A stretch of DNA of 51,015 nucleotides, the filler included, from Sphacelaria rigidula (lineage: Eukaryota): the NCBI GenBank assembly GCA_964200075.2. It is 3 parts of 3 records of this genome, joined end to end, with 100 filler letters (N's around TTAATTAATTAA, not from the genome) between each part and the next. Parts side by side here need not be neighbours in the genome. Positions count along the whole stretch, not along the records: positions 34,080 to 51,015 come from CAXNAA020001212.1; 2 more parts are not named here. One strand, 5' to 3'. This document shows positions 24,801 to 51,015 of the stretch, piece after piece; positions within the stretch are counted from its first letter, which is position 1, and each line of letters opens with the position of its first letter. Position numbers and translations under genes: made by a program. A model generated the notes under the pieces. The model was not told the DNA's origin and ran no database searches. It worked only from the letters and a program-made list of their open reading frames with translations.

Positions 24801-26188
24801 TCTCTCCTCCAGACTTGTGCGATTGCAAGCTGAGGATGCAGGGAAAGCAACGCGGCGTGTATCGCTCACGTATGGAATACTCTCTTTTAATATTGCTTTC
24901 TTGACTAAACCGCTGCCGCACGTTCCGCCAATATTTTCGCCAACCACAAAAATCCTCGCTGGTGGTTTCTGTGTGGCAGACATGGGAGAAGGCGAGGCAG
25001 GAAAATCAAGGTTTCCCCACTCTACTCTACACCATCTTTTCAGCAGCTGAGCAGTGGAGTGACATCACGGAAACCCGCCCTGACATTGCGCGAGCATTCA
25101 CAAAGGTCTACAGTCATCTCGGCGGATTCGACACGGTAGTAATTTCAAACGGCGGGAAAGATATCGACGGATACCTGTTGCATCTCGCGCGACTAGCCGG
25201 TGTGCGCAATCGAGTGGTGAACCTAGGATCCATTGCCGGAGGCTACCTGTCCGCGAGGTTTGACGCGGCAACCGCGTTTGTTGGACCTTCCCACTACGTG
25301 GCCCACAACCCAGCGACCAATCGTCACGCTCGGGGGCTGCCGATAAAAATTTGCCATCCCGTCATGGACGCTGCGAGGATCTTAAGAGCGGCTCGGTCCT
25401 GCCCGACTCCGCCTTCGGGATCTGATGATGGTATCGAAGGCACAACCAATCGCCGCACTAGTGCCTCAAATTCGAATGATTGGGACGGAACCTCCACCGT
25501 ATCAAGTCGAGATACTGAAGCTAGCCGCAGTCGGCAGGACGGCAGTTTAAGTGCAGCGGGCGACGGATTCACTGTGACAGATAATGCGTTTAGCGACCAA
25601 GTGGGAACCTTGGAGGGGGAGCGCTCCGATAATCAAGGAGGCCGCTTCGTGATGGTATCGCGGGTTTCACAAGAGAAGACACCGGGGGTATTTGTGCGTG
25701 CCATGGGGGCCCTCCAGCGGCGGCAACAGCTACGGCAGGGAGCGCGACAAGCACGTGCTGAAGGGGTATATGTGGGGACAGGTAGACTTCTTGAGCCTAT
25801 GAAACAGCTTGCTCGGGATATAGGTGCAGATATACGGTTCGCAGGATTGCTCGGTGTCGACATCGTACCTTGCGAGGTAGCGCAAGCGACCGCGCTAGTT
25901 TTACCATCTTTTGCGGCAGAGACGTTTGGTATGGTAGCCCCTGAGGCCATGATATTAGGTGTACCCGTGGTTACGTTTGGGTATGGGGGAACAGGAGAAC
26001 TCGTGAGGCATATGGAGAACGGTATAATCGTGTCGGAGCCGACCCCGAGGGCACTGGCCGATGCGTTGGAGCTGCTGGTGCGAGATTCAGCTCTCAGGGA
26101 TCGCTTAGGAGCCCAGGCGAGGGTCGATGCACTCCGGGCCCTCTCTTTGCCGGAGTTGGTGGCGTGTCACGTGGATGAGTTCGTGTAG
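21803..26188 (+). CDS. Membrane-anchored GT-B fold, GT4-like glycosyltransferase (Glycos_transf_1 C-terminal domain), 982 aa
   Basis: Exons 21803-22382, 22977-23862, 24146-24339, 24556-24635 and 24980-26188 are GT-AG, total 2949 nt, phases 1/2/1/0. N-terminal hydrophobic anchor TALALFLTLTALICVLLAL. C-terminus VSRVSQEKTPG...YVGTG...LVLPSFAAETFGMVAPEAMILGVPVV...GGTGELVRHMENG carries the EX7E motif. Confidence 0.88.
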
Positions 26189-26986: not shown

Positions 26987-27250
26987 AATAATGCTACGGT
27001 AGGGGTTGCACTTTTTGTTTCGCGGGCTCTCCTTCTTGTAGGAGCACAAATATATGGGGCTTACTGTTCGACCCGAATCTCCGGGGACAGGACATGGAGA
27101 TGCACGCAGGGACCTTTTTGTGAATCGGCATCATTTTCAGTCTTTTTAAGTCGAAAATAATGCCGATAAATAAAATGACCCGTCCAACACCCCGAGGAGC
27201 CCCGACAAGTCTTTTCACGAAAAAGTGCAACCCGTACGGTGTCATCACTC
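26987..27250 (-). mobile_element. MITE family B copy, in reverse orientation relative to 48987-49239
   Basis: TIRs atgctacggtaggggttgcactttt...aaaagtgcaacccgtacggtgtcatcactc. Internal atctccggggacaggacatggagatgcac is the reverse complement of the sequence at about 49122-49150. Confidence 0.85.
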
Positions 27251-33979: not shown

Positions 33980-34079
33980 NNNNNNNNNNNNNNNNNNNNN
34001 NNNNNNNNNNNNNNNNNNNNNNNTTAATTAATTAANNNNNNNNNNNNNNNNNNNNNNNNNNNNNNNNNNNNNNNNNNNN
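33980..34079. other. Artificial contig-join spacer
   Basis: N44-TTAATTAATTAA-N44. Confidence 0.95.
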
Positions 34080-34711: not shown

Positions 34712-36670
34712 GCGTAGGATTTTATTTTTTCAACACCCTGCTGTCTGATGACGATTACAGTGGGAAGAGTGACAGTTGAGTATGGACGAACGCTCGAGGA
34801 AATCCAGCAAACAAGCATCGTTTATGGTGCGCTATACATGCGAGGGTTAGGAGCTGAACGTTTCCGCTCCAAAGTCGACAGTCGAAGGTTAAGCTCCTGT
34901 CGCGCGTCCAGTGGGTGGTGCCACGGACCCTTACCGGCGTACCTGGCACTGGGGGCGATATCCCGGTGCAGACAGTCCCACCACTACCGGGACGGCCGTG
35001 CAAACAGGTTGGTAGCCGGGGTGGTCGTTGCACTGATGTTCTTCTAGCGTTGTCAACTTAGAGTACGGGCGCACAGGCGTCGCACGTGAATATTTCGGTG
35101 ATTGCCTCACTTCCACTTCGGCCATGTGCTGTGGATTATTCCACGATCTCACCGCCTACTACATACACACACATCTGCGGAAATGTACTACATCCCGGAC
35201 AAGAGCTTTGTACAGTCAGTATACAGTTAAATGTCATGTTCTCTGGACAGGATGGAATCTATTGCCTACCGCGACGTGCGCAATACTCGTACATACGAGT
35301 AGTGGGAACTGCGCGCAGTACCACCCTAAGGCAGTGAAGAAATCTCCACGGTATGAATTGAAACAGCCGGCCTGCGCCCCCATAGCGGCTGTGTTACCAC
35401 ACAGCTCGACCGACGATACAGGCAGACATTATAGCGGCAGAGGCGGCCTTTTACTCCTGCGTATGCCACCTAAGGCAAATGCACGCTCAGGTGCAACACC
35501 GACCGCTGTACAAGATGTGGCGGAGCGAGGGGCGGTACACAGTTATAGGGTGGATAACGACCCTGCATGGAAGACTATAGAGCACTACGAACGCGGGCAC
35601 TACCCATCTTCAGCCTAATGATGACTGGAAGAGTATGGAAGAATAAATGCGTGGGAACACCGCCCTGTGATCAGAAAAAAGATCAGTGACGCAATTCCAA
35701 CTCAACCTGAAGGCAAATCATATCGTCTACCGATAACTACATTGCACTTTACTTCTGCTGACCGCTGACGACACCACTACCTTCCGCCACGGATCGACCT
35801 ACATACACATGCTGAGCACTGTGTTCACGTCCATTCTTCCTTCTGCCACGGGACTTACACAGGCGAGGTCCACTCTAACTGTACGGTTACTACTGTAACC
35901 GTTGTCACTACAATACAGAGTAAGGTGGTCACGGTAATCCGACGGTTCGTGAAGGTCTTGCGTAGAGAATGTATCTATCTAGTAGACTACCCTCCATGTG
36001 TATCTTATGCGCAAACCTTGCTTGTGTAACATGGTGGCTATTTCCGAGACAGTAGGAGCGGCAGATGCACTCACTTAGCATCAAATTTGTAGAATAAAAT
36101 GAATAACTCAATTCGGTTAGCAGAGTAGCGCATTTTCCTGGGAGAGCTTGACCGCACGGCAGACAGGCAGTACGTATCACATGCGTCCGCCTTACATAGC
36201 ACATCTCCTTAGCAAACTAAGGCTCGCAACGAACTCTGCCTGCGAGGGCGGGGTCAATCTTCCTAATCTTCCTGTTTACCTAGCTCCAGCTTTGCTATGC
36301 CAACAGCTGATGTGTCACGGCTTGCGGTCTGCTGGCGCGATTCACGTCAGCTGTCCTAGTTGGTTGGCCAATCGTACACAAACGGTCATATGTTCCTTGC
36401 AACCGATCAAAAACCTCTACACTGCATGTTGAAAATCAAAGGAGCGGCAACACATTGCAAAGAAACATCAAGCCAAGATAAACACAGCCGACTGGTCATT
36501 GACCACGACTCTGAGCACTCACATGGCTCGATAAGTATCACAGCAGGTGGTACAACTATAGACTCGGCGCGTACTCCAAAGAAGCACGAAAGCCTTCCAT
36601 GCACGGTATATCCGGTGCAACATGCCGAGAACTCGAGACCTGGCAGTCTCGTATGATAATATCAAAATTG

Positions 36671-36752
36671 TGTCATGAAGACGCATACTAGCTTGCTGTC
36701 ATGCCGCTTCAGACCCGTTATCGAGTCTGGCGTTCGGTATTTCGCGTATTCC
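36671..36752 (+). repeat. Start of the 5' LTR (right boundary not determinable)
   Basis: 82 bp match 50836-50917 with 4 substitutions and begin with TG. Confidence 0.85.
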
Positions 36753-38975
36753 GGTATTCAAGACTGCAGGTCTGCTCAGAGTTGATCGGGTACGGATGTG
36801 AATCTGTATATTGCAGAGATGATATTGGCTTTGTTCGCTGAGCACAAACAAAGCTCGCACCATCGATCACTACCCATCGCTACCCTATTGCTCTCCAGCA
36901 AGAGAAGTCTAAGCATCGGTGAGACCTATTGACTGGTTTGGGATTGAATTGATTTATTGGATACTGGAGTTAGAAACAAGACAATCAAGGAGAAGTTAAG
37001 AACCATCGTGTGAAAACTCGTCTGACATTTGATTGCTGAGCCTGTGTGCAGCACGTGCAAGCTGTGGCAGCCTGACGGTTGTCCACTTGCTTCGTAAGCT
37101 CGTGCCTTGGGTTGCAAGCTGTGTCCTTGTAATTATAGCACAACAGCACTTCATTACATTGGCGTTTGACTAAGGAGATTCTTCTTTTGCAGTTGCGTTT
37201 CCTTCTTGATACCGATTTGTATTCCTGCCCGTCGAGCTGCGTGACCCCAGCTTTCGTGATCACTTTTTGCCCCGTTGTGTTCCTCTTCGGTACGGTAAGA
37301 AGTCGAACCTATCGCTTCTCGATAGTCAGTAGCTACTGCAAGCTTCTGCCCTGTGTGTCCCCTGGTAAAGAGTATTCGTGCCCTGCTACTTGCGACTTGC
37401 TGCAGCGCTTGACTGCACATATTGTGCTACGTTGGGTCAACGCGCACCGCTTGCCAGTCTCGCCTTGCTGTGATTTTGTGACATATACACCTGTACACTG
37501 AATGGTGTAAGTTCCGACTGCACGACATAAGTCCCTTGGTGATTCAATCCGGCACAATCACGCACCAAGCCATCCTTGGCGCGCGTATTTGGTCTTATTG
37601 CCCCCTTTCCTTCTGCCGGGAGAAATCTTCTACTACAAGTTTGTACAGAACACCAGTGCACAAGGGCACTGTTGCTCATAGTCAGCAGCTGTCCCTGACC
37701 TGAGCTCCTAGGCAAGTCAGCACTCTGTTGCTCTTTTTTTTTGTATCGATTGTACGCGAACGTTGTATTTTTTCTTCACGAAATTACTGAACAGTACATC
37801 CTGTGCTCTCAGAAGGTGACCATGGACATCTGTACCCGAAATTTGTACCCGTTCTGGCACTTTAGCTTCGTTGCTTGTAGCTCCTTTGTTGTTGTTCTCT
37901 CCTGGTGTACTTCGCACAGCTATTGAGCAGGGCTGTACATCACCGTGGTAAGTAACAATACACGTCACAACGGACTGTAGTTTGTTTCTTCTTATTGACC
38001 CCTTCTCGAACAATGTCAATCAATTGTTCCCGAGACGGTTTCGTCGCGAGAATACTTGTTGGACACATTCCAAACCAACGTTACATACTCACTTGGAGCA
38101 GACAGCACTCGAAACCAGTGCCCCTGCAGTGCACAACTTCACCTTTGTTTCACATACGTACGTTGCCTTAACTCCGATGTGTAACAAGCTTTCGTCCTGC
38201 ACTACGCAGTCCAATCTCGCGATCTACATCCCAAGCTTTGTAAAAGCTTTTGTGCTGCCCCACGCTGCACGATTTAGATGTTCATCTGAAAATGTTTCTT
38301 TCATTGTACACCGCCAGTTGCTTCTCACCTTGTGCCAGAATAGTACAGTTATAGTCTGCCGTGACGCCACACCCGGAACACGTGTGAGTTGTACGACTTT
38401 CACGTACCAAAGCTGCTACAGACAGTCGGATCTTCGCTTTTCTTCGACGCCATACGTCTGATTTGTGCGCAATCCCGAGCTCGGTTGATAGCTGTTACCG
38501 CCACAACTCAGATAAGTTGTATTAACCAGACACCGGACATAGGTTTTACATACAGCAATTCGCTTGAATGAAAATACTTGAGTAAATCAGGTTTCAAGGT
38601 CCCCCCAGGCGCTATTAGACTTCATTATCCCGTATTTTCCGGATACAAACTTCGGCCTTTGCAGGTAGCATCTCTTGGTGTCACGCTCCTTTGATTAGAG
38701 CCGCAGATCAGACACACTGCCCCTGCCTTTTCTAAGCACACAAGTTGCGTACGATTATCATGTCGGACAGAAATAACGCTGGCTTTTCCCCTCAATTGGG
38801 AAAAAAATCGCTTCGTCGGACACGGAGTCAAACAACTGCCGGTTCGAAATCTTTTGATATTAGTGTCGCGTCACCTTAAACTCATCGCCGCACGTATGCG
38901 AGCGCTGTTCGATCTTCGGGATCTGAAGACCAACCTTCGAGCGATGCTCGTTCTTCAAGGCTTGAAGACAAGACT

Positions 38976-41800: not shown

Positions 41801-41815
41801 AGACAGTATATTCAG

Positions 41816-43162
41816 ATGGATGTGAAAAAACTCTGGCACATCAAAACCATGCCTGCTGCGGATAACGAAGATTCGGGCCAGTTTACCTTTGCCCTTATCA
41901 CGTCCATCCGCCGTTCTGTTTGTAACATCCTTCACTTGGCGGATGTGACTGGCACACAACGTTTCGAAGATTCCGACTGGGTAGAGGGCTGGCAGACTCC
42001 CTTGCACAGAGCAATGCATCGATCGATCAGCGGCCGCTCTCCCGACCTCGCTGCTTCTTTGACGCAGATTCACGACGGCTTCCTCGCCGAGATGGACCCG
42101 GACTGTGCCAAGGGGAAGACAGGCCCGGTATTACTCTCTGATTTGGAGAGGTGTTTGATCGGTTACTTCGATAAACGTGACCAGGCCAGTACCGTCCAGA
42201 GGCTAAGTATTTTTGTCGTCGCATTTGATGTCCCCTTCGCGGATTATCTCCGCGAATTTAAGCTTTTGGTTTCGCGTACGACAGGTGCCGGACGCCAGAA
42301 CGGACCGAGCGATGCAATGCGTCAGACTTTCGTTTGCAATAGCGTTGCTCAACAGTATCCAGCTCTGATGCCGTCGTTGTTTCCGGGTGTCTTGGCGCAT
42401 CGCGAGGTGCCTTACGCCTCCGTCGATACTATGTGGTCTACGTTTGTACACCAAGAGGGTAATCTAACGCCTTCCATACCTGGCAAACCTCGTACGTCTG
42501 TGCGTTCACAACCTGCGGTTGTGTCCTCCGCTCATGCCCAAGGGGCTCCCGGCAGGAATTCGAGCTCGTCTCGTGCTTCATGGACCCCCGACTCAGTCGC
42601 CGGTTCAGTTGTGCATGTGCAGGGTACCAGAGATGCATTTAGCGCGAGTTTTGATGGTTGGCCGTTTTCCGAGGAAAGTTGGGATGATGTTTATTTGACT
42701 TCAACAACGGCATTCATAACCGATGACCCCCATTTGTGGAACCCACTTCTTTCGTCTTCCGCTAGACGCAATTCGCTCAGCAGTCATGCTAACAGTTGCA
42801 TCAACTGTAGTGTTCAAGGCCACAGTATGCGCGACTGCGACAGTCCATGCATCAATGCCTTTGATCTCATGAACCCTGAATTACAGGACAATGAACCCGC
42901 GTGGCGCCGATGGCAAAAACGCATGCGCCACTACCGTCCACCCAATCGAAATTACCGTAACAATTCGAACCAACGTGGCAACAAAAGCTCTAATCGCAGT
43001 CGCCGGGAAAACAACAATCACGGAAGCCCTCGCCAGAACGATCGAAATTCTCGCGACCACAAACGTTCCGCTGATAGACACCAGCGGACGGGACCAACAC
43101 AAAGCTCTAATCCCAACACCAGAAACTGTGGTACCTTCACTACGGATCGCTTAGATCCATGA
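41816..43162 (+). pseudogene. gag: gag core with a CCHC zinc knuckle
   Basis: 448-aa ORF. FADYLREFKLL resembles a gag major homology region. CINCSVQGHSMRDC (CX2CX4HX4C) at 42797-42838 is followed by an R/N-rich basic tail. Confidence 0.8.
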
Positions 43163-43452: not shown

Positions 43453-44359
43453 ACCGCGTAACAGTTGTGTCATCCCGCGACTCAGACCTACACCCGGCTT
43501 TGAACTTGGTCCTTCAGTGTCGAGTATAAGTCTGAGGTGTGGGAAAACAAACCGCCAGTCCCTGAGGCAAAGGCTTCCCTCAGCGACCACACGCATAGGT
43601 AGTAGCAAGCTATTTTCAGTTGACCCAAGTGTTGCTGATTTGAACTTGACCATGTCAGAGAATTTAATTCCCAATCAGTTGGATCGAGCTCCTTCCCCGC
43701 GATCTTCAACACGCACGGACCTACCTTCGGCCGGTTTTACGAACAACCGCCCCAACATATCTTCGGCTATGCCCCAACAGCCAAGCTTGCCTAAGGAACG
43801 CAGCCCACAAGTTTCGCTCCGTCATGCTCCGATGCTGACCCCATCCACGTAACTGGACGCAGTTGTGGTTTCATCCCAAAATGTGGTAGAAGTTCCCCGA
43901 CCTTTATCACGGCGAAAGCGAAAGCCCCGTAAGCATGACCCCAAGGACGCGCGCGCATCATTACGTACACCTGTGTCGAGCGGAAATCCTCGACCCCAAT
44001 CCCTCCAAAATGCGACGACTTTGAGTTCGACGGTTCTATCAAGTATCCCGGAGGAAATAAAATCAAATAATTCTGACGGCACTACTTCTTCAATCCATGA
44101 CTCCAGCCCCGCACATTCTGAATCCCCCTTCGATGGTGATCCCTGTCAACCAAAGACGATCATTTACGAAATCGCTAATAGTCACCCTGACCGTGCCACA
44201 CCTGGAAATAATATACCGCCCACCTCCTTCTCTGGTGAGAAAACTGACCCACAGGCGGATCACCCGCCGTGTGATTTTGCTGTCAGCCCCGCTGATCCTG
44301 ACCAGTCTACCTTGCCGGAACACGGTCCGGATCTTGTCGGCGGTGAAGTGTCTGTAGAT

Positions 44360-44839
44360 GCGGCCACTTTCACTACTCGCGTTGCGATCCATTCCGGTCC
44401 AAACGCTATCACGTCTACGAAATGCGTATCCTTGTTGGACAGCGGCAGCCCGCAAACATTTATTTGAGAATCAACATGGAACCACATGAAGCAGACTGGC
44501 GCTGCTACTGCAGCTTGCGAAACCACCACCAAACCTCGCGTGTGGGGCGGTTTTGATGATTCTGCCGCACCACTGACGACACGCAAATCCGTAAGAGTCA
44601 GTGAGCAATTCTTTCACAACACCACTCGATCTACCAGCCTGGTAGTCTGGGCATACTTTGTCTCTGACAGCACAATGCATCACGCCATATTATTGGGCAG
44701 AGCCAGCGATATGCGGTTTAATAAACGCACCTACCGCACGCTTCCACCACTAACGCCACATTCCCCGCCACGTGGAGAATTCAACCTCGAGCACTTCGGT
44801 ACTCTCCACGGCGCCCTGGCTTATCAGAAGAATCCTTAA
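44360..44839 (+). pseudogene. pol: Aspartic protease domain
   Basis: LLDSGSPQTFI at 44432, an in-frame TGA at 44465, then a downstream ILLGR motif. Confidence 0.85.
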
Positions 44840-45372
44840 GCAACCGGAGCTGTTTACCACATACGATACAACGGTAGCGTGGGTATTACACTCTCCGACG
44901 ACCCCCAACTTCTTGAAACGTTGCACTAGTTCGCCGAAGTGGCATGCCAGCACTTACGTGCCATTATCTTGCCGAAATCTTACCCCGTATTGGCGCACCA
45001 GCCGACACAGAACATTTTTTGTCGGCGGGACAACAACTCCTCCCTCTTACGGGTCATCCTAACTTGGAACCTAGCGATGTTTTAGGAATCGCCGCTGTTC
45101 CCCTGGTGCACATCCCACTCGAGACGTGCGTCACAGAGCCTGCCGCGCCAAACGCCACATCTCCGGTGGAGTCAGTCCAATGTGTCGATGAGCCTTATTT
45201 CGACCTCGCCTCTGCGACTCCACCGCAGGTCCACACCGTGGATCCTGCCCAGTCAAATTTCGATCCTCCTGCTGAAGTGCTTCAACGCTTATCACCAGAT
45301 TCTCAGAATACTTTCTTGCACATGTGGAACCAACTGCCGCCACACATGCGCGACATCAATTTTTTACCTTAA

Positions 45373-46780
45373 TGGGCCCGGCTGGGAACCAGCAGTCATC
45401 CAAGAACTCAGTGATGTCCTGCTACAGTACGAAAACCGATTTTCCCGATCCAAGGCGGATCTTGGGCATTGCAAAACACTGCCCTTTGAGGTTACCCTCC
45501 AACCCGGTGTCTCGCCGATTTCTTCTCGGCCATACCGAACAACCCCGATCCTTACCAAGAAAGTTAACGCCATCTTAGATGCGTATCTGGGAGCGGGATT
45601 AATACAGCATTCCTCCTCTCCTTTGGCCTCGCCCCTTGAGGTAGTCCCCCAAAAGGATGGAAACACACGCATAACCGTGAATTACCAACGGTTGAACCGC
45701 GTCACTGTGGTCGGTAAACTTCAATTCCCCGCATTGATGACGTCTTCGACTCCTTAGGCGAAGGAGAAATATTCAGCACCTTCGACCTCGCTTCTGGATT
45801 GTTTCAAAATGCTATACACCCTGACACAGTCCCACTGACGGGTTTTTGTGCCTCGTCCGGACGCTACGAGTGGCTTCGGATGCCACAAGGCGCCGCCACT
45901 GCCCCGGGATGCTTTCAACGCTCAATGCAACGCGTCACCGAGGACCTCGAGAACATCATCATGTACCCGAATGACGCCATCGCTTTCGATGACTCACCTA
46001 TTGCACATATCCGCACTCTACGAGAATTTCTCTCTCGCCTACGCACGCACGATTTGAAACTGTCCAAAGCTCGCCTTGGTGCGGCTGACTTGGATTTCTT
46101 GGGGCATTCCATTTCGCCAGCAGGCCTGCATCCGGATACAAAGTCAAGGCGATGACTAATTTGCCGACGCCAACGAACATTTCTCAACTTTGCTCATTGT
46201 TGGGCGGGCTGTCCTACTACCGCAATGTTTTGCCGAATTTATCTCAACGGATTCGCCCCCTCACTGAGCTACTCAAGAAAGGAGCCGTGTTTCTTTCACA
46301 GCCGAAATGGAGAATACCACCCGCGAATAACTCAAGACGCTCACCGAAAAGCCCGCTCTTTGCTTCCCTGATTGGGAGGCAGTACAAGATGGCTCTCGCC
46401 TCTTCCAACTCCACACTGGCGCCAGCACAAACGGATTTGGAGGAGTTTTGAAACCTCAGGTTGATGACTCCATACGACCCATCCTTTATATCAGCCGCGC
46501 TACCCTGCCCAACGAGACCAACTGGAGCCCGCTAGAACTGGAAGGTGGAGTAATCACTTGGGCCATTAAGCGCCTTCGACAATATCTGTTTCACGTGCCC
46601 TTCGAGATCTATACGGATCACGGAGCTCTTGAACAACTCGCCAAGGTTGGCGAACACAACGCTCGTGTACAACGATGGTTAGGGTTTCTAACAGCATACC
46701 AGTATACGATCAAGCACCGTCCAGGCAAAACCAACGGGAACGCTGATGTTCTTTCCCGCCTACGGCCGCAGATTCCAGCC
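45373..46780 (+). pseudogene. pol: Reverse transcriptase and RNase H (disrupted)
   Basis: RT motifs PYR, SPLASPLEVVPQKDG...VNYQRLN, FSTFDLASG, YEWLRMPQG...APGCFQR. The catalytic YxDD reads YPND. RNase H: ISRATLPNETNWSPLELE...YTDH...NADVLSR. Several frameshifts. Confidence 0.92.
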
Positions 46781-48451
46781 CGGCTTGCCGTTTAACGGAA
46801 CCCAATGAACCTGGAATTTACGCGATTAGACGTTTTTCAACGCCCATTTACGCCCTCGAGCTCCAGTGCCCGGGAGCCGGTATGCATATTGGAGGGCCTT
46901 ACCCTCTACCGTATGACGCTGCCTTGGATGGATTAAAGCCCACTACCTCCGATTTTGTCGATTTTCGCACTTTCCGTACTCGCTCGAAACTGCTCGCGGA
47001 GACACCTCCAGTCACCCACCGAATCTCCGACAACACGCGCTCCCGGGTTGCCGCCCGCACCACACCGAGTGCCCCGCTGCCACCAACAACACCTGCAACC
47101 TCTATATGAGCCACCCAGCACAAGTTCCACGGACCAACACGCAACGCTCCGCGAAACCTTCTGCACCGTGCACCACGAGCCGCGGGCAATCTTTGCCGCG
47201 CACTGATACAACCCCGCCGCCCACCACGGCGCCGCCAACATTTACCGCTGACGAGCACGGCGCTGACGACTTAGCTCCGGCCTCCGGGACAGATATTGAC
47301 GAAATTTCTGCCCTGCCGCCTATTCCCCCGCCGCCTGCCCCACCATGTTTGGTCGGCTCGCCAGCGGAAGGTCAACTACGCGAGTTTCTCGCCAGCTACT
47401 CCCACCGCCATTGGGCTCGCGAACAAAACGCAGAACCGCTATGTCGCGCAGCCACCCGATACTTACAACTCGACTGTCCAGTCCCTTTTCCATCCACACT
47501 TTTGGCCCCGGTTGGCACACTGCCACCATCAGTCATTTCTGACGTATACGAGCTCGTGCGTAGAGGCACCCTTTTTCTACGGATGAAGGTGTGCAACTAC
47601 TCGTGCATCGGCCCACGCCTTTGACAGGCGCAATTTCCGCCTCAACCACGGGACGCACCGCACGACTACTCAATGACAAACCAACGCGAATATATGTGCC
47701 ATTATTAATGCGCCCCTAGGTCATGAAAGGCTGCCACACAGACTTATCATGTCACCTTGGCGTCACCCGCACCCTCGCGCTCGTGAAACCCTTCTACTGG
47801 TGGGTTGGCATGGAAATTCAACCCGCTTCTGGATTTGGCGATGCTTCAGATGCCAAGCCCGAAAACCTTCACGACGGACAGTACGCTGGCCCGTCCTCTC
47901 TATGGGACTCCCCGACGAGCCCGGCCACCTTGTGTCCTTTGACTACTTTGGCCCTCTACCGACCACAGGTCGCCGCAACACCTACATCTTACTCTTCATT
48001 GATCGCTTCAGCCGCCACGCGTCCATGTACGCGGTAACAACCGCAGATTTCACTGCCGCCGGAACGGCCGACATATTGGTCCAAGATTACATTAAGCACT
48101 ACGGTTGCCCAAAGCGACTCCTTTTAGACAATGGTCAGCAATTTTGCTCGGACCTCTCTGATGAGCTTTTCAAGCTTCTGGGCATCCGCAAAATTGCCAC
48201 GAGCGCCTACCACCGAACGGTAACGGTGGTACCGAAAGAGTTAATCACACCATGGCCTAGATGTTTTCTATGGTTGTCAATGACCGCCAAAATGACTGGG
48301 ACCTACATCTCTCGCACATCATGTTGCCCTGCAACAACTCGGTTAATGCCGCCACAGGCCTTTCTCCGAACAAACTCCATCTTGGACGTTACGCTCGGCT
48401 GCCTATCACCGTGTATGAGCGACACACGTTCGACGGCCACCAAGGACTAGA

Positions 48452-48701
48452 GACTGCTGCCGAGATAGCCCCCCCCCAAACCGGCCAAAACCGTGCACGG
48501 GGGTGATACTCATAAATGCCGTTAGAGCTAGTTTCTTGCTGCCCGACGCGACTTATTTAGGCGTCGAAGCTGATTTCGCCCTCGCTACACACCTCTCATG
48601 TGGGCGAAGTTGCTGTAAACGAGCCCAACAGTGGAATCGCAGCCGGTTTGCCGGACGGTCTTCGGTGCACATTTTGTAGGGGGGCTATCTCGGCATTAGT
48701 C
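48452..48701. mobile_element. MITE (family D) nested in the integrase
   Basis: TIRs gactgctgccgagatagcccccc...ggggggctatctcggcattagtc. Removing it restores ggactagatcagg (GHQGLDQD). The TSD is TAGA, or AG if the ends are read as agact/agtct. Confidence 0.88.
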
Positions 48702-48986
48702 TAGATCAGGATTAGATATCCTACCACGAGCTAGCGCATGCGCGACAATGCAAAGCGTTTACCCTCGTGTGCGAACAACACGCTATCCACGCCTCGCGCC
48801 TAGAGAGATCTGACACTGCTCTCTACAATCCCATGCACAAACGCCCTAACTGGAACGTTGGTGATTGGGTTTGGATCTACAACAGTTTGTCGACCATCCG
48901 CCAGGGCACCAGCAAGGCAGCCAATTTAACAATCTTGAAAACAAAACTGTCCCTCAATTGAACAGGACCATTCAAGATCCTGACAG

Positions 48987-49239
48987 GAGTGATGCTACGG
49001 TACGGTTGCACTTTTTGAGCGAAAATGTTTCTCGGCGTGTTGCACGGATCATGTTGAGAGTCGGCATCATTTTCACTTGAAAAAGACTGAAAACGATGCC
49101 GGTTCACGAAAAAGCCCCTGTGTGCATCTCCATGTCCTGTCCCCGGAGATTTGGGCTGCACAGTGAGCGTCATATATTTGGGCTCCTACAAAAACGAGAC
49201 CCAGAAACAAAAAATGCAACCCCTACCGTAGCATTGCTC
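48987..49239 (+). mobile_element. Sola-like MITE (family B) nested in the integrase
   Basis: Termini gagtgatgctacggta...taccgtagcattgctc with 4-bp flanks acag and atag. Removing it restores GPFKILTVGP. Confidence 0.88.
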
Positions 49240-50350
49240 ATAGTCGGACCATTGTTATCATCACCGGATGAAAAAGCAGTTGGTGACAAGCTGCTCTATC
49301 TCGACTTACCTCGCGACTTCCAGGGCAAAGACACCAAGCCCGGCGTCTCCGTCCAGAGATGAAAACCCTGCACGAACCCGCATGATACAAGTGACATGCC
49401 TAAGTGAACTCACACAGTATGTTCTCAAGAGCTACTCGACCAAGTCCCCGCCCTGCCACGTTACAACCGACGACGTGACGGAACAGCCCCTTCGATTGAT
49501 CGTGTCCTCCATTTCCGGCCACCAGACAACCCCTGGTCGAGGAGGCAAGACCGCTGTCATGTATAAGACCCACTGGCACGGTCTTCGGAGAGCGTCTTGG
49601 AAACGCGAATCCGACCTGCAATTGCACCGCCGTGCAATCCTCCTGTACTGGACGCAATCCCAACATCAGCATCTTGCTCACAACAAGAAATATCGCAACA
49701 TGCGTCGTGGCGCAGCAGCCCGCGAACTTCACCGCAATCGGGGACTATGCTTCGTCGCCGATGGTCATGAACTTGTACCCACCAAAACTTGTAAGACGAA
49801 GTTCTTCGCGAACCAGCAACTCCTGCCCAAGAGCAGCTACCTTTGGTTCAAAGGCAGGGACAACCTCTGGTGGTTGGGTCAGACCCACTCCGCTAACCTG
49901 GTTTCGGCCGACACATACATCGTGCGCTTCATTGATGACCCTGGACCCATACAGCTCAAACTTTGGCCAGCACTATACACCACCAGCCCATCTACACCAC
50001 GTGGATCCTGGTGTCTCCAGCGCCTCAAGTCCAAAGGGCTTCGCCGTGGTCTCCAGCGCAACATCGACCACACCCACGACGTCCACGCCCCGCTTTGAGC
50101 GACGCTTCCTTGTCGCGACTGTTGCCCCACCCCCACTTTTTTTCCCGTAAGCATTGCGGGACGCCCCTCCTCCACCAGGACCCTCTTCTGCGACATCACA
50201 ACAGCGCGACCTACATCGGACGACGATCAAGAATGAATTTAGTGGACGACCACCACCCACGACTACTGGAGCTATAGTATCCCCTTGCGACTGGTGCTCG
50301 ATCTCGTTGGATCACCGATTTTCAGATTTCCGATCTTGCAATTTTTAGCA

Positions 50351-50517
50351 CCTTTGGATTCCCCCTGGTTGAAGCTCTGCTCCCTGTTGTACCTTTGGAT
50401 TCCCCTAGGTTGAAGCTCCGCTCCCTGTTGTACCTTTGGATTTCCCCAGGTTGAAGCTCTGCTCCCTGTTGTACCTTTGGCTTCCCCCAGGTTAGAGCTC
50501 TGCTCCCTGTTGTACCT
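50351..50517 (+). repeat. 41-bp tandem array (4 copies) in the retrotransposon 3' UTR
   Basis: Unit cctttggattccccc(a/t)ggttgaagctctgctccctgttgta starts at 50351, 50392, 50433 and 50474, with no spacers. Confidence 0.95.
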
Positions 50518-50835
50518 CCCTGCTCCTCCCTCTTAAACTATGCTAGGACGCCGAAACAATTTGTGCTTCTTCGTTAATCGCTAGCATGCAGAAGCAGTTT
50601 GTGCTTCCGCGTTTTGGAACAGTTTTTCTGCTCCTCGAAGCAGTCTATGCTTCCCTTCTTTCGGGGTGTGGGAGTGGATACAGGATTGTTGGTACGGTAG
50701 TGTTAGGTACGGGAGTGTTTCCTTAGGTATGCTTTATTAGCCGCTCATCACTTTACGGGTAAAGAAAAACATTAGTTTTCGCTGCTCTGAGGTTAAATTC
50801 CGCAGCTGTCATAGAGGTTCGTCTGGGTGGGTTAG

Positions 50836-50917
50836 TGTCATGAAGACGAATATTAGCTTGCTGTCATGCCGCTTCAGACCCGTTGTCGAGTCTGGCTTTC
50901 GGTATTTCGCGTATTCC
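50836..50917 (+). repeat. Start of the 3' LTR, interrupted by an insertion
   Basis: Matches 36671-36752 and is preceded by a G-rich, PPT-like gggtgggttag. Confidence 0.85.
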
Positions 50918-51015
50918 GAGTCATCCTACGATAGGGGGGGGGGGGGGGTGTGGGCTGCCGTTTAACAGCTTCCTATCATGCTTGATGGAATTGCTCCCCC
51001 ATCCATTTGGGGCGG
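50918..51015. mobile_element. Family C element inserted into the 3' LTR, truncated by the window end
   Basis: LTR-LTR identity stops where gagtcatcctacgataggg-polyG begins. The same 19-mer occurs at 33724. Confidence 0.7.

Follow-up and report, generated by a model that had tools for sequence, protein, structure and literature searches.

A predicted chromodomain and Tudor-like barrel in tandem at the integrase C-terminus of a Ty3/gypsy retrotransposon family with a decayed copy in Sphacelaria rigidula

The PWWP domain of LEDGF/p75, a barrel of the Royal family, tethers lentiviral integrase and thereby connects it with a chromatin state. There the reader resides in a host cofactor, whereas in the Ty3/gypsy retrotransposon family described here the barrel lies within the integrase polypeptide; the likeness is one of function alone. 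Integrases fused to reader domains show most clearly how a mobile element picks its landing site, and the known examples carry one reader each, nearly always a chromodomain. The chromodomain of MAGGY is reported to direct integration to chromatin methylated at lysine 9 of histone H3 (H3K9me), as cited in PMC3350952 and PMC5348765. We have analysed a stretch of DNA of 51,015 nucleotides from Sphacelaria rigidula (assembly GCA_964200075.2; three parts joined by filler letters, together called the window), the final 7 kb of which hold, on the + strand, a decayed Ty3/gypsy pol. An earlier note had read the tail of this pol as a chromodomain followed by a second, Tudor-like reader. It was found that the tail belongs to a large family, in which the tandem module at the integrase end probably docks on chromatin and biases insertion, both of its methyl-lysine cages being incomplete.

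The closest described systems are the chromodomain-bearing integrases of chromoviruses and other Ty3/gypsy elements, above all the group II chromodomains (CHD_II). Like the one found here, they are situated at the C-terminus of a gypsy integrase, past the GPY/F region, and combine W45 and an (S/T)WE motif with the absence of Y24 and Y48 (PMC3350952, in the text available to us). They differ in that the same text describes them as plant-only, while here the chromodomain is succeeded by another folded domain. A survey of fusions between chromatin domains and transposable elements (TEs) highlights, in its accessible part, Chromo and PHD fusions (bioRxiv 10.1101/2021.11.30.470311). Nearer to the present host, four Gypsy lineages of Ectocarpus were described in PMC12477816, three with putative C-terminal chromodomains and one, Gypsy-10_Ec32, with a C-terminal Tudor domain; the accessible text calls the latter the first TE with a Tudor domain and reports a homologue in Tribonema. 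According to this text, the Gypsy lineages of brown algae that carry chromodomains belong neither to the chromoviruses nor to the Chronos clade, which makes the designation chromovirus, employed in the earlier note, doubtful. In the chromodomain of ECR-1 all three aromatics of the cage are present (PMC11541908, in the portion at hand). The present family shares with these Ectocarpus lineages, ECR-1 included, the host group and a Gypsy integrase with a Royal-family reader, and has a relative, P0182, in Ectocarpus. However, one reader per element is reported in the accessible parts of PMC12477816 and PMC11541908, whereas here we find a tandem pair with both cages incomplete. A tandem chromodomain–Tudor retroelement was not found in the literature, the sole relevant paper being PMC12477816, the accessible text of which describes no such form. 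The impression that the architecture is not a recognised one may thus hold for the tandem pair, but not for Gypsy integrases with either a chromodomain or a Tudor domain, already reported in the text of PMC12477816.

As its conservation shows, the tail is a real protein module. The phmmer query was a 284-residue open frame (P0001), the translation of 49244–50098 (+), whose first ~50 residues (49244–49400) lie outside the true pol frame; the true pol tail is open from 49403 to the stop codon at 50096–50098. Both peptides quoted in the earlier note were located in this one open frame (49403–50098), LIVSSISGHQ...ESDL at 49496–49618 and LPKSSYLWFKG...IQLKL at 49823–49963. Among 1.84 billion representatives, 538 proteins reach E ≤ 1e-3; of these, 212 remain when the limit is tightened to 1e-10, and 11 at 1e-30. 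P0002 ranks first (E 3.1e-61) and shows 49% identity across query residues 41–279, and the whole tail is covered by P0002, P0003 and P0005 at 44–49% identity. Set against each other, 23 tails align cleanly from the linker behind the GPF motif through the stop, and a divergent subgroup (P0179–P0181, P0048 and P0082), at ~30% identity, has the layout unchanged. Conservation of the segment among related elements, on which the earlier proposal depended, is thus borne out by the relatives, by this alignment and by the conserved columns of the barrel (see below).

Intact polyproteins end in the same module. In the long-protein searches, 11 of 11 and 18 of 18 relatives end in the tail, the precomputed Pfam annotation listing rve for 10 of the former and all 18 of the latter, and reverse transcriptase (RT), RNase H, Integrase_H2C2 and rve lie upstream of it in P0158, P0159 and P0161. 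The clusters of P0172 and P0175 comprise 197 and 185 members, respectively, at identities of at least 90%, with contigs of up to 2.4 Mb and open reading frames (ORFs) of up to 2184 aa, and both domains are present in the tails of P0172 and P0175. From these large clusters of near-identical copies it follows that the family has been active in recent times, its tail still being intact. The relatives in brown algae, a protein of Ectocarpus sp. CCAP 1310/34 (P0182, CAB1105230.1) and a gene model of Nemacystus decipiens (P0025, EukProt g3980.t1), fit the earlier guess of a brown-algal host; a host among the brown algae or their close allies is likely.

The first domain, at 49484–49663 (+), was modelled as a chromodomain with three strands and a C-terminal helix, resembling group II. 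The AlphaFold2 input consisted of the 231-residue tail of the window and 146 relatives (147 sequences), and the two-domain tail was predicted with a mean local confidence (pLDDT) of 85.4 and a predicted template modelling score (pTM) of 0.78. In the model a three-stranded antiparallel sheet packs on a C-terminal helix, as in chromodomains. A profile of the family, compared with 177,635 sequences of the PDB, matched the chromodomains of Swi6 (E 0.017) and MPP8 (E 0.22), and of the 147 sequences 20 gave a Pfam Chromo match at E ≤ 1, the lowest value being 1.7e-4. The assignment of this stretch to the chromodomains, made at first by eye, gains from both the modelled fold and the Swi6 match.

Next comes a basic helical linker, YRNMRRGAAARELHRNRG, at 49685–49738 (+), which corresponds to a helix at model residues 95–112; a basic helix between the two domains had been anticipated, and the model predicts it as such. 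A Y-R-x-x-R...A-x-R-E-L pattern is conserved in the linker of the 23 aligned tails. The second domain, at 49763–50026 (+), was modelled as an extended Tudor-like barrel of SH3 type, in which the core of four strands is preceded by an N-terminal strand and a helix and followed, on the C-terminal side, by one more strand (GSWCLQ). Modelled alone with 65 relatives, it reached pLDDT 82.8 and pTM 0.70, with strands at residues 32–36, 42–48, 57–62 and 68–72, plus 89–94, that is, the bent SH3-like barrel of four to five strands typical of the Tudor/Royal family. The tail closes with a short, low-confidence C-terminal segment (50027–50098, +; pLDDT 32–58 in both models) that includes the pol stop, and the relatives terminate at the matching place, a median of 19.5 residues past the second domain.

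When the barrel was compared with PDB structures by Foldseek, each of the first 17 rows listed was a Tudor domain or a Spindlin (PHF19, PHF1, Pcl, TDRD3), with probabilities of 0.96–0.99, TM scores to the target of ~0.6 and root-mean-square deviations of ~2 Å over 46–48 columns; for PHF19 and PHF1 the probability was 0.99 and the deviation ~2. In the VIA-wide comparison, 25 of the 50 rows listed are, by their titles, Tudor, Agenet, chromo-barrel, SAWADEE or Spindlin structures. The highest Z score there belongs to the translocation-signal domain of TraI (7.3), followed among Royal-family structures by Spindlin-4 (6.2), the knotted Tudor of Esa1 (5.8), the RDM15 Tudor (5.7), the BAHCC1 tandem Tudor (5.3), TDRD3 (5.2) and PHF19 (5.1, with 56 of 57 residues aligned). 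Leads from the Atlas for the barrel were Spin/Ssty, the PTM/DIR17 Tudor, SAWADEE and Tudor-knot, with scores of 0.75–0.79, all below 0.9. Comparing sequences, three PHF19 Tudor chains matched the family profile at E 0.067–0.098, in an alignment that covers the D-G-L-aromatic-aromatic-L-G-K-I and V-x-F-x-D core, and weak Pfam matches among the 147 members comprised the myosin N-terminal SH3 domain (12), Agenet (6, best 0.012), PWWP (1) and Tudor_2 (1). A Tudor-like fold, proposed in the earlier note from a pattern of residues, is therefore well supported by the models and the Tudor/Spindlin rows. Homology of the barrel to Royal-family readers is likely, and among known domains the predicted barrel comes nearest, in sequence and structure, to the Tudor domain of PHF1/PHF19, from which it differs by the added N-terminal strand and helix and the C-terminal strand. 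We also considered whether the barrel arose by duplication of the SH3-like C-terminal domain (CTD) that the integrase already has. This was rejected, as hhalign returned a probability of 1.1%, the sole overlap being a coincidence of six residues (PGPIKI/TGPFKI).

Several results weigh against a pair of chromatin readers. Pfam gave no family at E ≤ 1, Chromo (PF00385) included, for the window tail itself; the Chromo matches in 4 of 13 relatives (E 0.003–0.1) reach 13.0–17.9 bits, below the gathering score of 25.1, and no Tudor-family match was obtained from Pfam in these 13 relatives at E ≤ 0.1. phmmer of the window tail returned no PDB sequence at E ≤ 10, and Foldseek returned no PDB match at E ≤ 0.001 for either model; no score for the Tudor assignment, whether from Pfam, phmmer, the family profile or Foldseek, reaches significance. 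The remaining objections concern the cage residues. For the chromodomain, HP1 numbering was taken from PMC3350952 and the register from the Swi6 profile alignment (that of Y24 being inferred from Swi6), with counts over 98 distinct family sequences. The Y24-equivalent is Leu, Ile or Val and aromatic in 3 of 98, and the Y48-equivalent is Leu or Ile and aromatic in 5; the W45-equivalent is Trp in 91. In the case of the barrel, 73 distinct family sequences were counted in the register of the profile alignment to PHF19. We take the PHF19 cage to be formed by W50, Y56, F74 and Y80. The W50-equivalent is Ala, Ser, Gly, Thr or Asp and never aromatic (0/73), the Y56-equivalent is Trp in 64 and Gln in the divergent subgroup, the F74-equivalent is Phe in 61 and Leu or Met in that subgroup, and the Y80-equivalent is Ile, Val or Ala in 65 and Tyr in two.

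The classical (group I) chromodomain cage thus appears to be lacking, with one of three aromatics kept (L/W/L at Y24/W45/Y48 in the window copy), and the domain follows the group II pattern instead, as W45 and the (S/T)WE motif are kept (S/T in 92, W in 92 and E in 91 of 98; SWK in the window copy) and Y24 and Y48 are lost. This is a likeness and not an indication of common descent; moreover, heterochromatin recognition by CHD_II rests on indirect evidence alone according to the available text of PMC3350952. The barrel would likewise be without a methyl-lysine cage of PHF1/PHF19 type, with two of the four positions kept, and it differs here from the Tudor domains of the Polycomb-like proteins PHF1, PHF19 and MTF2 in that two of the four presumed cage positions are non-aromatic. 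Its most conserved residues lie off the cage positions (W42 and L73 in 71 of 73 each, D64, W89 and C90 in 69 each), and an alternative pocket might be built from other conserved aromatics, namely W34, Y35, W42, Y58 and W89. The family therefore does not conserve a canonical methyl-lysine cage, and the aromatic cages pictured in the earlier note did not survive these counts, W50 finding no aromatic counterpart, Y80 being matched by Tyr in two sequences and the chromodomain retaining its Trp alone.

The two domains travel together. Among the barrel proteins with at least 150 residues upstream, 39 of 45 also contain the chromodomain, always at a spacing of 34–38 residues, and the tandem arrangement first noticed in the window is a property of the family. 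This constant spacing, together with a pTM of 0.78, points to a single structural unit. The other six of the 45 (P0025, P0160, P0192, P0096, P0163 and P0131) have no chromodomain. In P0025, from Nemacystus decipiens, TIMP and WSC domains are joined to a fragment of a retrotransposon tail (linker and barrel), and this protein is probably an annotation chimera from a TE fragment. P0096, P0163 and P0131 (612–832 residues) have no integrase, and their N-terminal parts are rich in Ser/Arg and resemble coiled coils. Homology among the three is seen overall (E 5e-62) and for the N-terminal parts alone (1e-13); their barrel starts where it does in the integrase tails, at a G-Y-x-L-V boundary. In a tree of the barrel they group with the integrase-type fragment P0055 (SH-aLRT 97), nested among integrase tails; the tree is a quick one (79 rows, 89 columns, rooted on the divergent subgroup) with many unresolved forks. 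A search with the N-terminal part of P0096 returned P0096 alone, and tblastn gave no match to it in the window. P0078 has a different N-terminus and ends in chromodomain and barrel. These four, P0096, P0163, P0131 and P0078, may be host genes or ORFs of another element.

Taken together, the integrase of this family comprises a zinc-binding domain, the catalytic core, the GPY/F-type C-terminal region and then a fixed module of two domains, that is, a chromodomain of group II type with its central Trp and (S/T)WE kept and Leu or Ile in place of the cage residue on each side, some 35 residues of basic, helical linker and a Tudor-like barrel of ~90 residues. By analogy with the chromodomains of chromoviruses, such as that of MAGGY, we infer that this module tethers the complex of integrase and cDNA to a chromatin feature and so biases the insertion sites. 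As both cages are incomplete, classical H3K9me3 is a less likely ligand than a non-canonical surface of a histone, a tail that is unmodified or bears another modification, DNA, or a chromatin protein of the host. Candidates are H3K36me3, H4K20 methylation, an unmodified histone surface, DNA and a host protein. H3K36me3 is the mark read by the Tudor domains of PHF1, PHF19 and MTF2. In brown algae, H3K36me3 is reported to be associated with active chromatin and H3K79me2/H4K20me3 with repressed chromatin, H3K27 methylation to be absent and H3K9 methylation to be mostly undetected (PMC13076208, as far as its available text goes). A more far-reaching proposition, which we regard as doubtful, would combine all of this: the chromodomain, linker and barrel would be a portable docking cassette for chromatin that arose in the Gypsy elements of stramenopiles, has become adapted to the peculiar chromatin of brown algae and reads a mark or surface not known to be used by any retroelement reader, the barrel having passed from integrase genes to the otherwise unrelated P0096, P0163 and P0131.

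Other explanations of the tail have to be set beside that of a docking module with non-canonical cages. Both domains could be canonical methyl-lysine readers with aromatic cages, which act bivalently on two histone marks and steer integration to heterochromatin. Both folds are indeed of methyl-lysine reader classes, in the main subgroup two of the PHF19 cage positions are occupied by W (64/73) and F (61/73), many other aromatics of the barrel are conserved and a pTM as high as 0.78 suggests that the two domains form a fixed unit. Nevertheless, we consider this quite unlikely. One of three cage aromatics is left in the chromodomain, and the two kept in the barrel are lost in the divergent subgroup in spite of its unchanged architecture; furthermore, the classical chromodomain ligands may be unavailable in brown algae, given the status of H3K27 and H3K9 methylation reported in the available text of PMC13076208. 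Alternatively, the second domain may be a generic SH3-like barrel that reads no histone, binds DNA, cDNA or a host protein or aids integrase multimerisation, and resembles Tudor domains in shared topology alone. The highest VIA-wide Z score, that of the SH3-like signal domain of TraI (7.3), agrees with this proposal, and so do the KOW, Pelota and myosin-SH3 rows also listed there, the rank of the myosin N-terminal SH3 domain as the second most frequent weak Pfam match (12 of 147), the incomplete cage and the E values above 0.05 of every Tudor match at the sequence level. On the other side, the PHF19 Tudor chains are the sole PDB matches to the barrel part of the profile besides YedJ (E 0.38, profile 193–304), the first 17 Foldseek rows listed are of Tudor type, the barrel does not derive from the element's own CTD (hhalign 1.1%) and its fusion to a chromodomain places it in a chromatin context. 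A generic barrel without histone reading thus seems unlikely to us, if somewhat less so than a pair of canonical readers.

A further possibility, to which we give tentative weight and more than to either of these, is that the element is the published Tudor-carrying lineage of Ectocarpus (Gypsy-10_Ec32, with its Tribonema homologue), in which case the upstream chromodomain alone would be new. Gypsy-10_Ec32, of 11,528 bp, has a C-terminal Tudor domain and possibly a single gag-pol ORF (PMC12477816, accessible text); among the relatives here single ORFs reach 2184 aa, and the element in the window is put at >11 kb, with gag at ~41.8 kb or earlier and the end at 50.1 kb. However, the same text of PMC12477816 keeps chromodomain and Tudor lineages separate and mentions no tandem form, and the Ectocarpus relative P0182 scores weakly, in its subgroup, for Chromo-type features and not for Tudor. 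Finally, the tail could have been a chance open frame or a non-functional read-through in a decayed element, as the window copy is dead, with stops, frameshifts and two insertions, and other long frames overlap the tail region on both strands. This reading is refuted by the 538 relatives, extending to ~30% identity, and by the conservation of W42, D64 and W89/C90; confident AlphaFold2 models and intact pols ending in the tail point in the same direction, and we attach practically no probability to it.

The pol itself extends over 44309–50098 (+; protease region, RT, RNase H, integrase and tail, as delimited by tblastn and Pfam). Pfam placed RVT_1 at 45718–46155 (E 2.1e-12), RT_RNaseH at 46331–46795 (E 5.3e-25) and rve at 47677–48450 (E 8.8e-10), and this order of RT, RNase H and integrase together with the GPY/F-type C-terminus assigns the element, on sequence features, to Ty3/gypsy (Metaviridae). 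P0158 (1848 aa), P0159 (1670 aa) and P0161 (1618 aa) are collinear with the window over ~44309–50080 in tblastn, and the full-length relatives collinear with the window also carry Integrase_H2C2. The match of P0158 is broken into 14 tblastn pieces with changing frames, owing to frameshifts, stops and two insertions, and the window copy is a dead relic without functional importance. As it is non-functional, the proposed mechanism applies to the family and not to this copy. Upstream of pol, a gag-like open frame at 41801–43162 (+), taken from the ORF list, contains a CCHC zinc-knuckle motif recognised by eye, CINCSVQGHSMRDC.

The integrase C-terminal region of GPY/F type (48698–48985, +; residues 1449–1543 of P0158) shows VGDWVWIY and TGPFKIL in translation. 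Its GPF motif (TGPFKIL, ~48962–48982) shares the frame of the tail, which the earlier note placed behind it; the path between them is interrupted by stops, an insertion and a frameshift. An in-frame stop (48959–48961) directly precedes TGPFKIL and further stops follow downstream. A conserved linker behind GPF (DKLLYLDLP..., 49234–49404, +, delineated by tblastn and three-frame translation) contains stops and is in a frame different from that of the tail, and the frameshift into the tail frame lies between ~49364 and 49404 (tblastn pieces 49234–49401 versus 49364–50068). The two insertions were recognised from gaps in tblastn collinearity and from inverted repeats. The first, of 252 bp, lies inside the integrase at 48451–48702 (tblastn gap 48452–48698), has 30-nt inverted repeats that are 87% complementary and is missing from the intact relatives. 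The second, of 253 bp, lies at 48987–49239, has 30-nt inverted repeats that are 73% complementary and is missing from the relatives. Another copy of it was found by blastn within the window on the opposite strand at ~26990–27250 (27196–26990, 208 nt, 84.6% identity). In both insertions 192–193 nt separate the 30-nt arms, and they look like miniature inverted-repeat transposable elements.

An 84-nt direct repeat (36670–36753 and 50835–50918; 95% identity, 14,165 bp apart) has no extension on either side. No pair of long terminal repeats (LTRs) could be defined from this 84-nt repeat, with the window stopping 917 bases past the pol stop; the 3′ LTR may have been cut off by the window end or have decayed, and the repeat may be what is left of the LTRs or a short repeat with no relation to them. 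At 50350–50554, ~250 bp 3′ of the pol stop, a 41-bp unit occurs four times in tandem (91–93% identity for the middle copies), possibly in the 3′ untranslated part of the element. Elsewhere in the window, a 427-codon open frame at 24905–26188 (+) resembles a host gene exon. G runs of 18–19 nt beside a pair of 85-nt repeats, and several short stretches of N (186 in total), at 14499–14740, 16941–17040 and 33980–34079, were read as signs of assembly gaps in repeat-rich sequence. Among sequencing runs sharing sampled words with the window, the best share was ≤0.36, the labels were 'algae metagenome' or marine, and no RNA run was listed.

The second domain is missed by standard domain annotation, and, as Pfam is silent on it, similar tandem tails may be under-reported. 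H3K27 methylation being reportedly absent from brown algae and H3K9 methylation mostly undetected, the classical chromodomain ligands may be unavailable to elements of these hosts. Because the repressive chromatin of this host group is thus reported to lack those ligands (PMC13076208, in its available text), the ligand that the module recognises is directly testable. If the proposed docking on chromatin is true, the conserved pair of chromodomain and Tudor-like barrel would represent a two-part docking device present in hundreds of element lineages.

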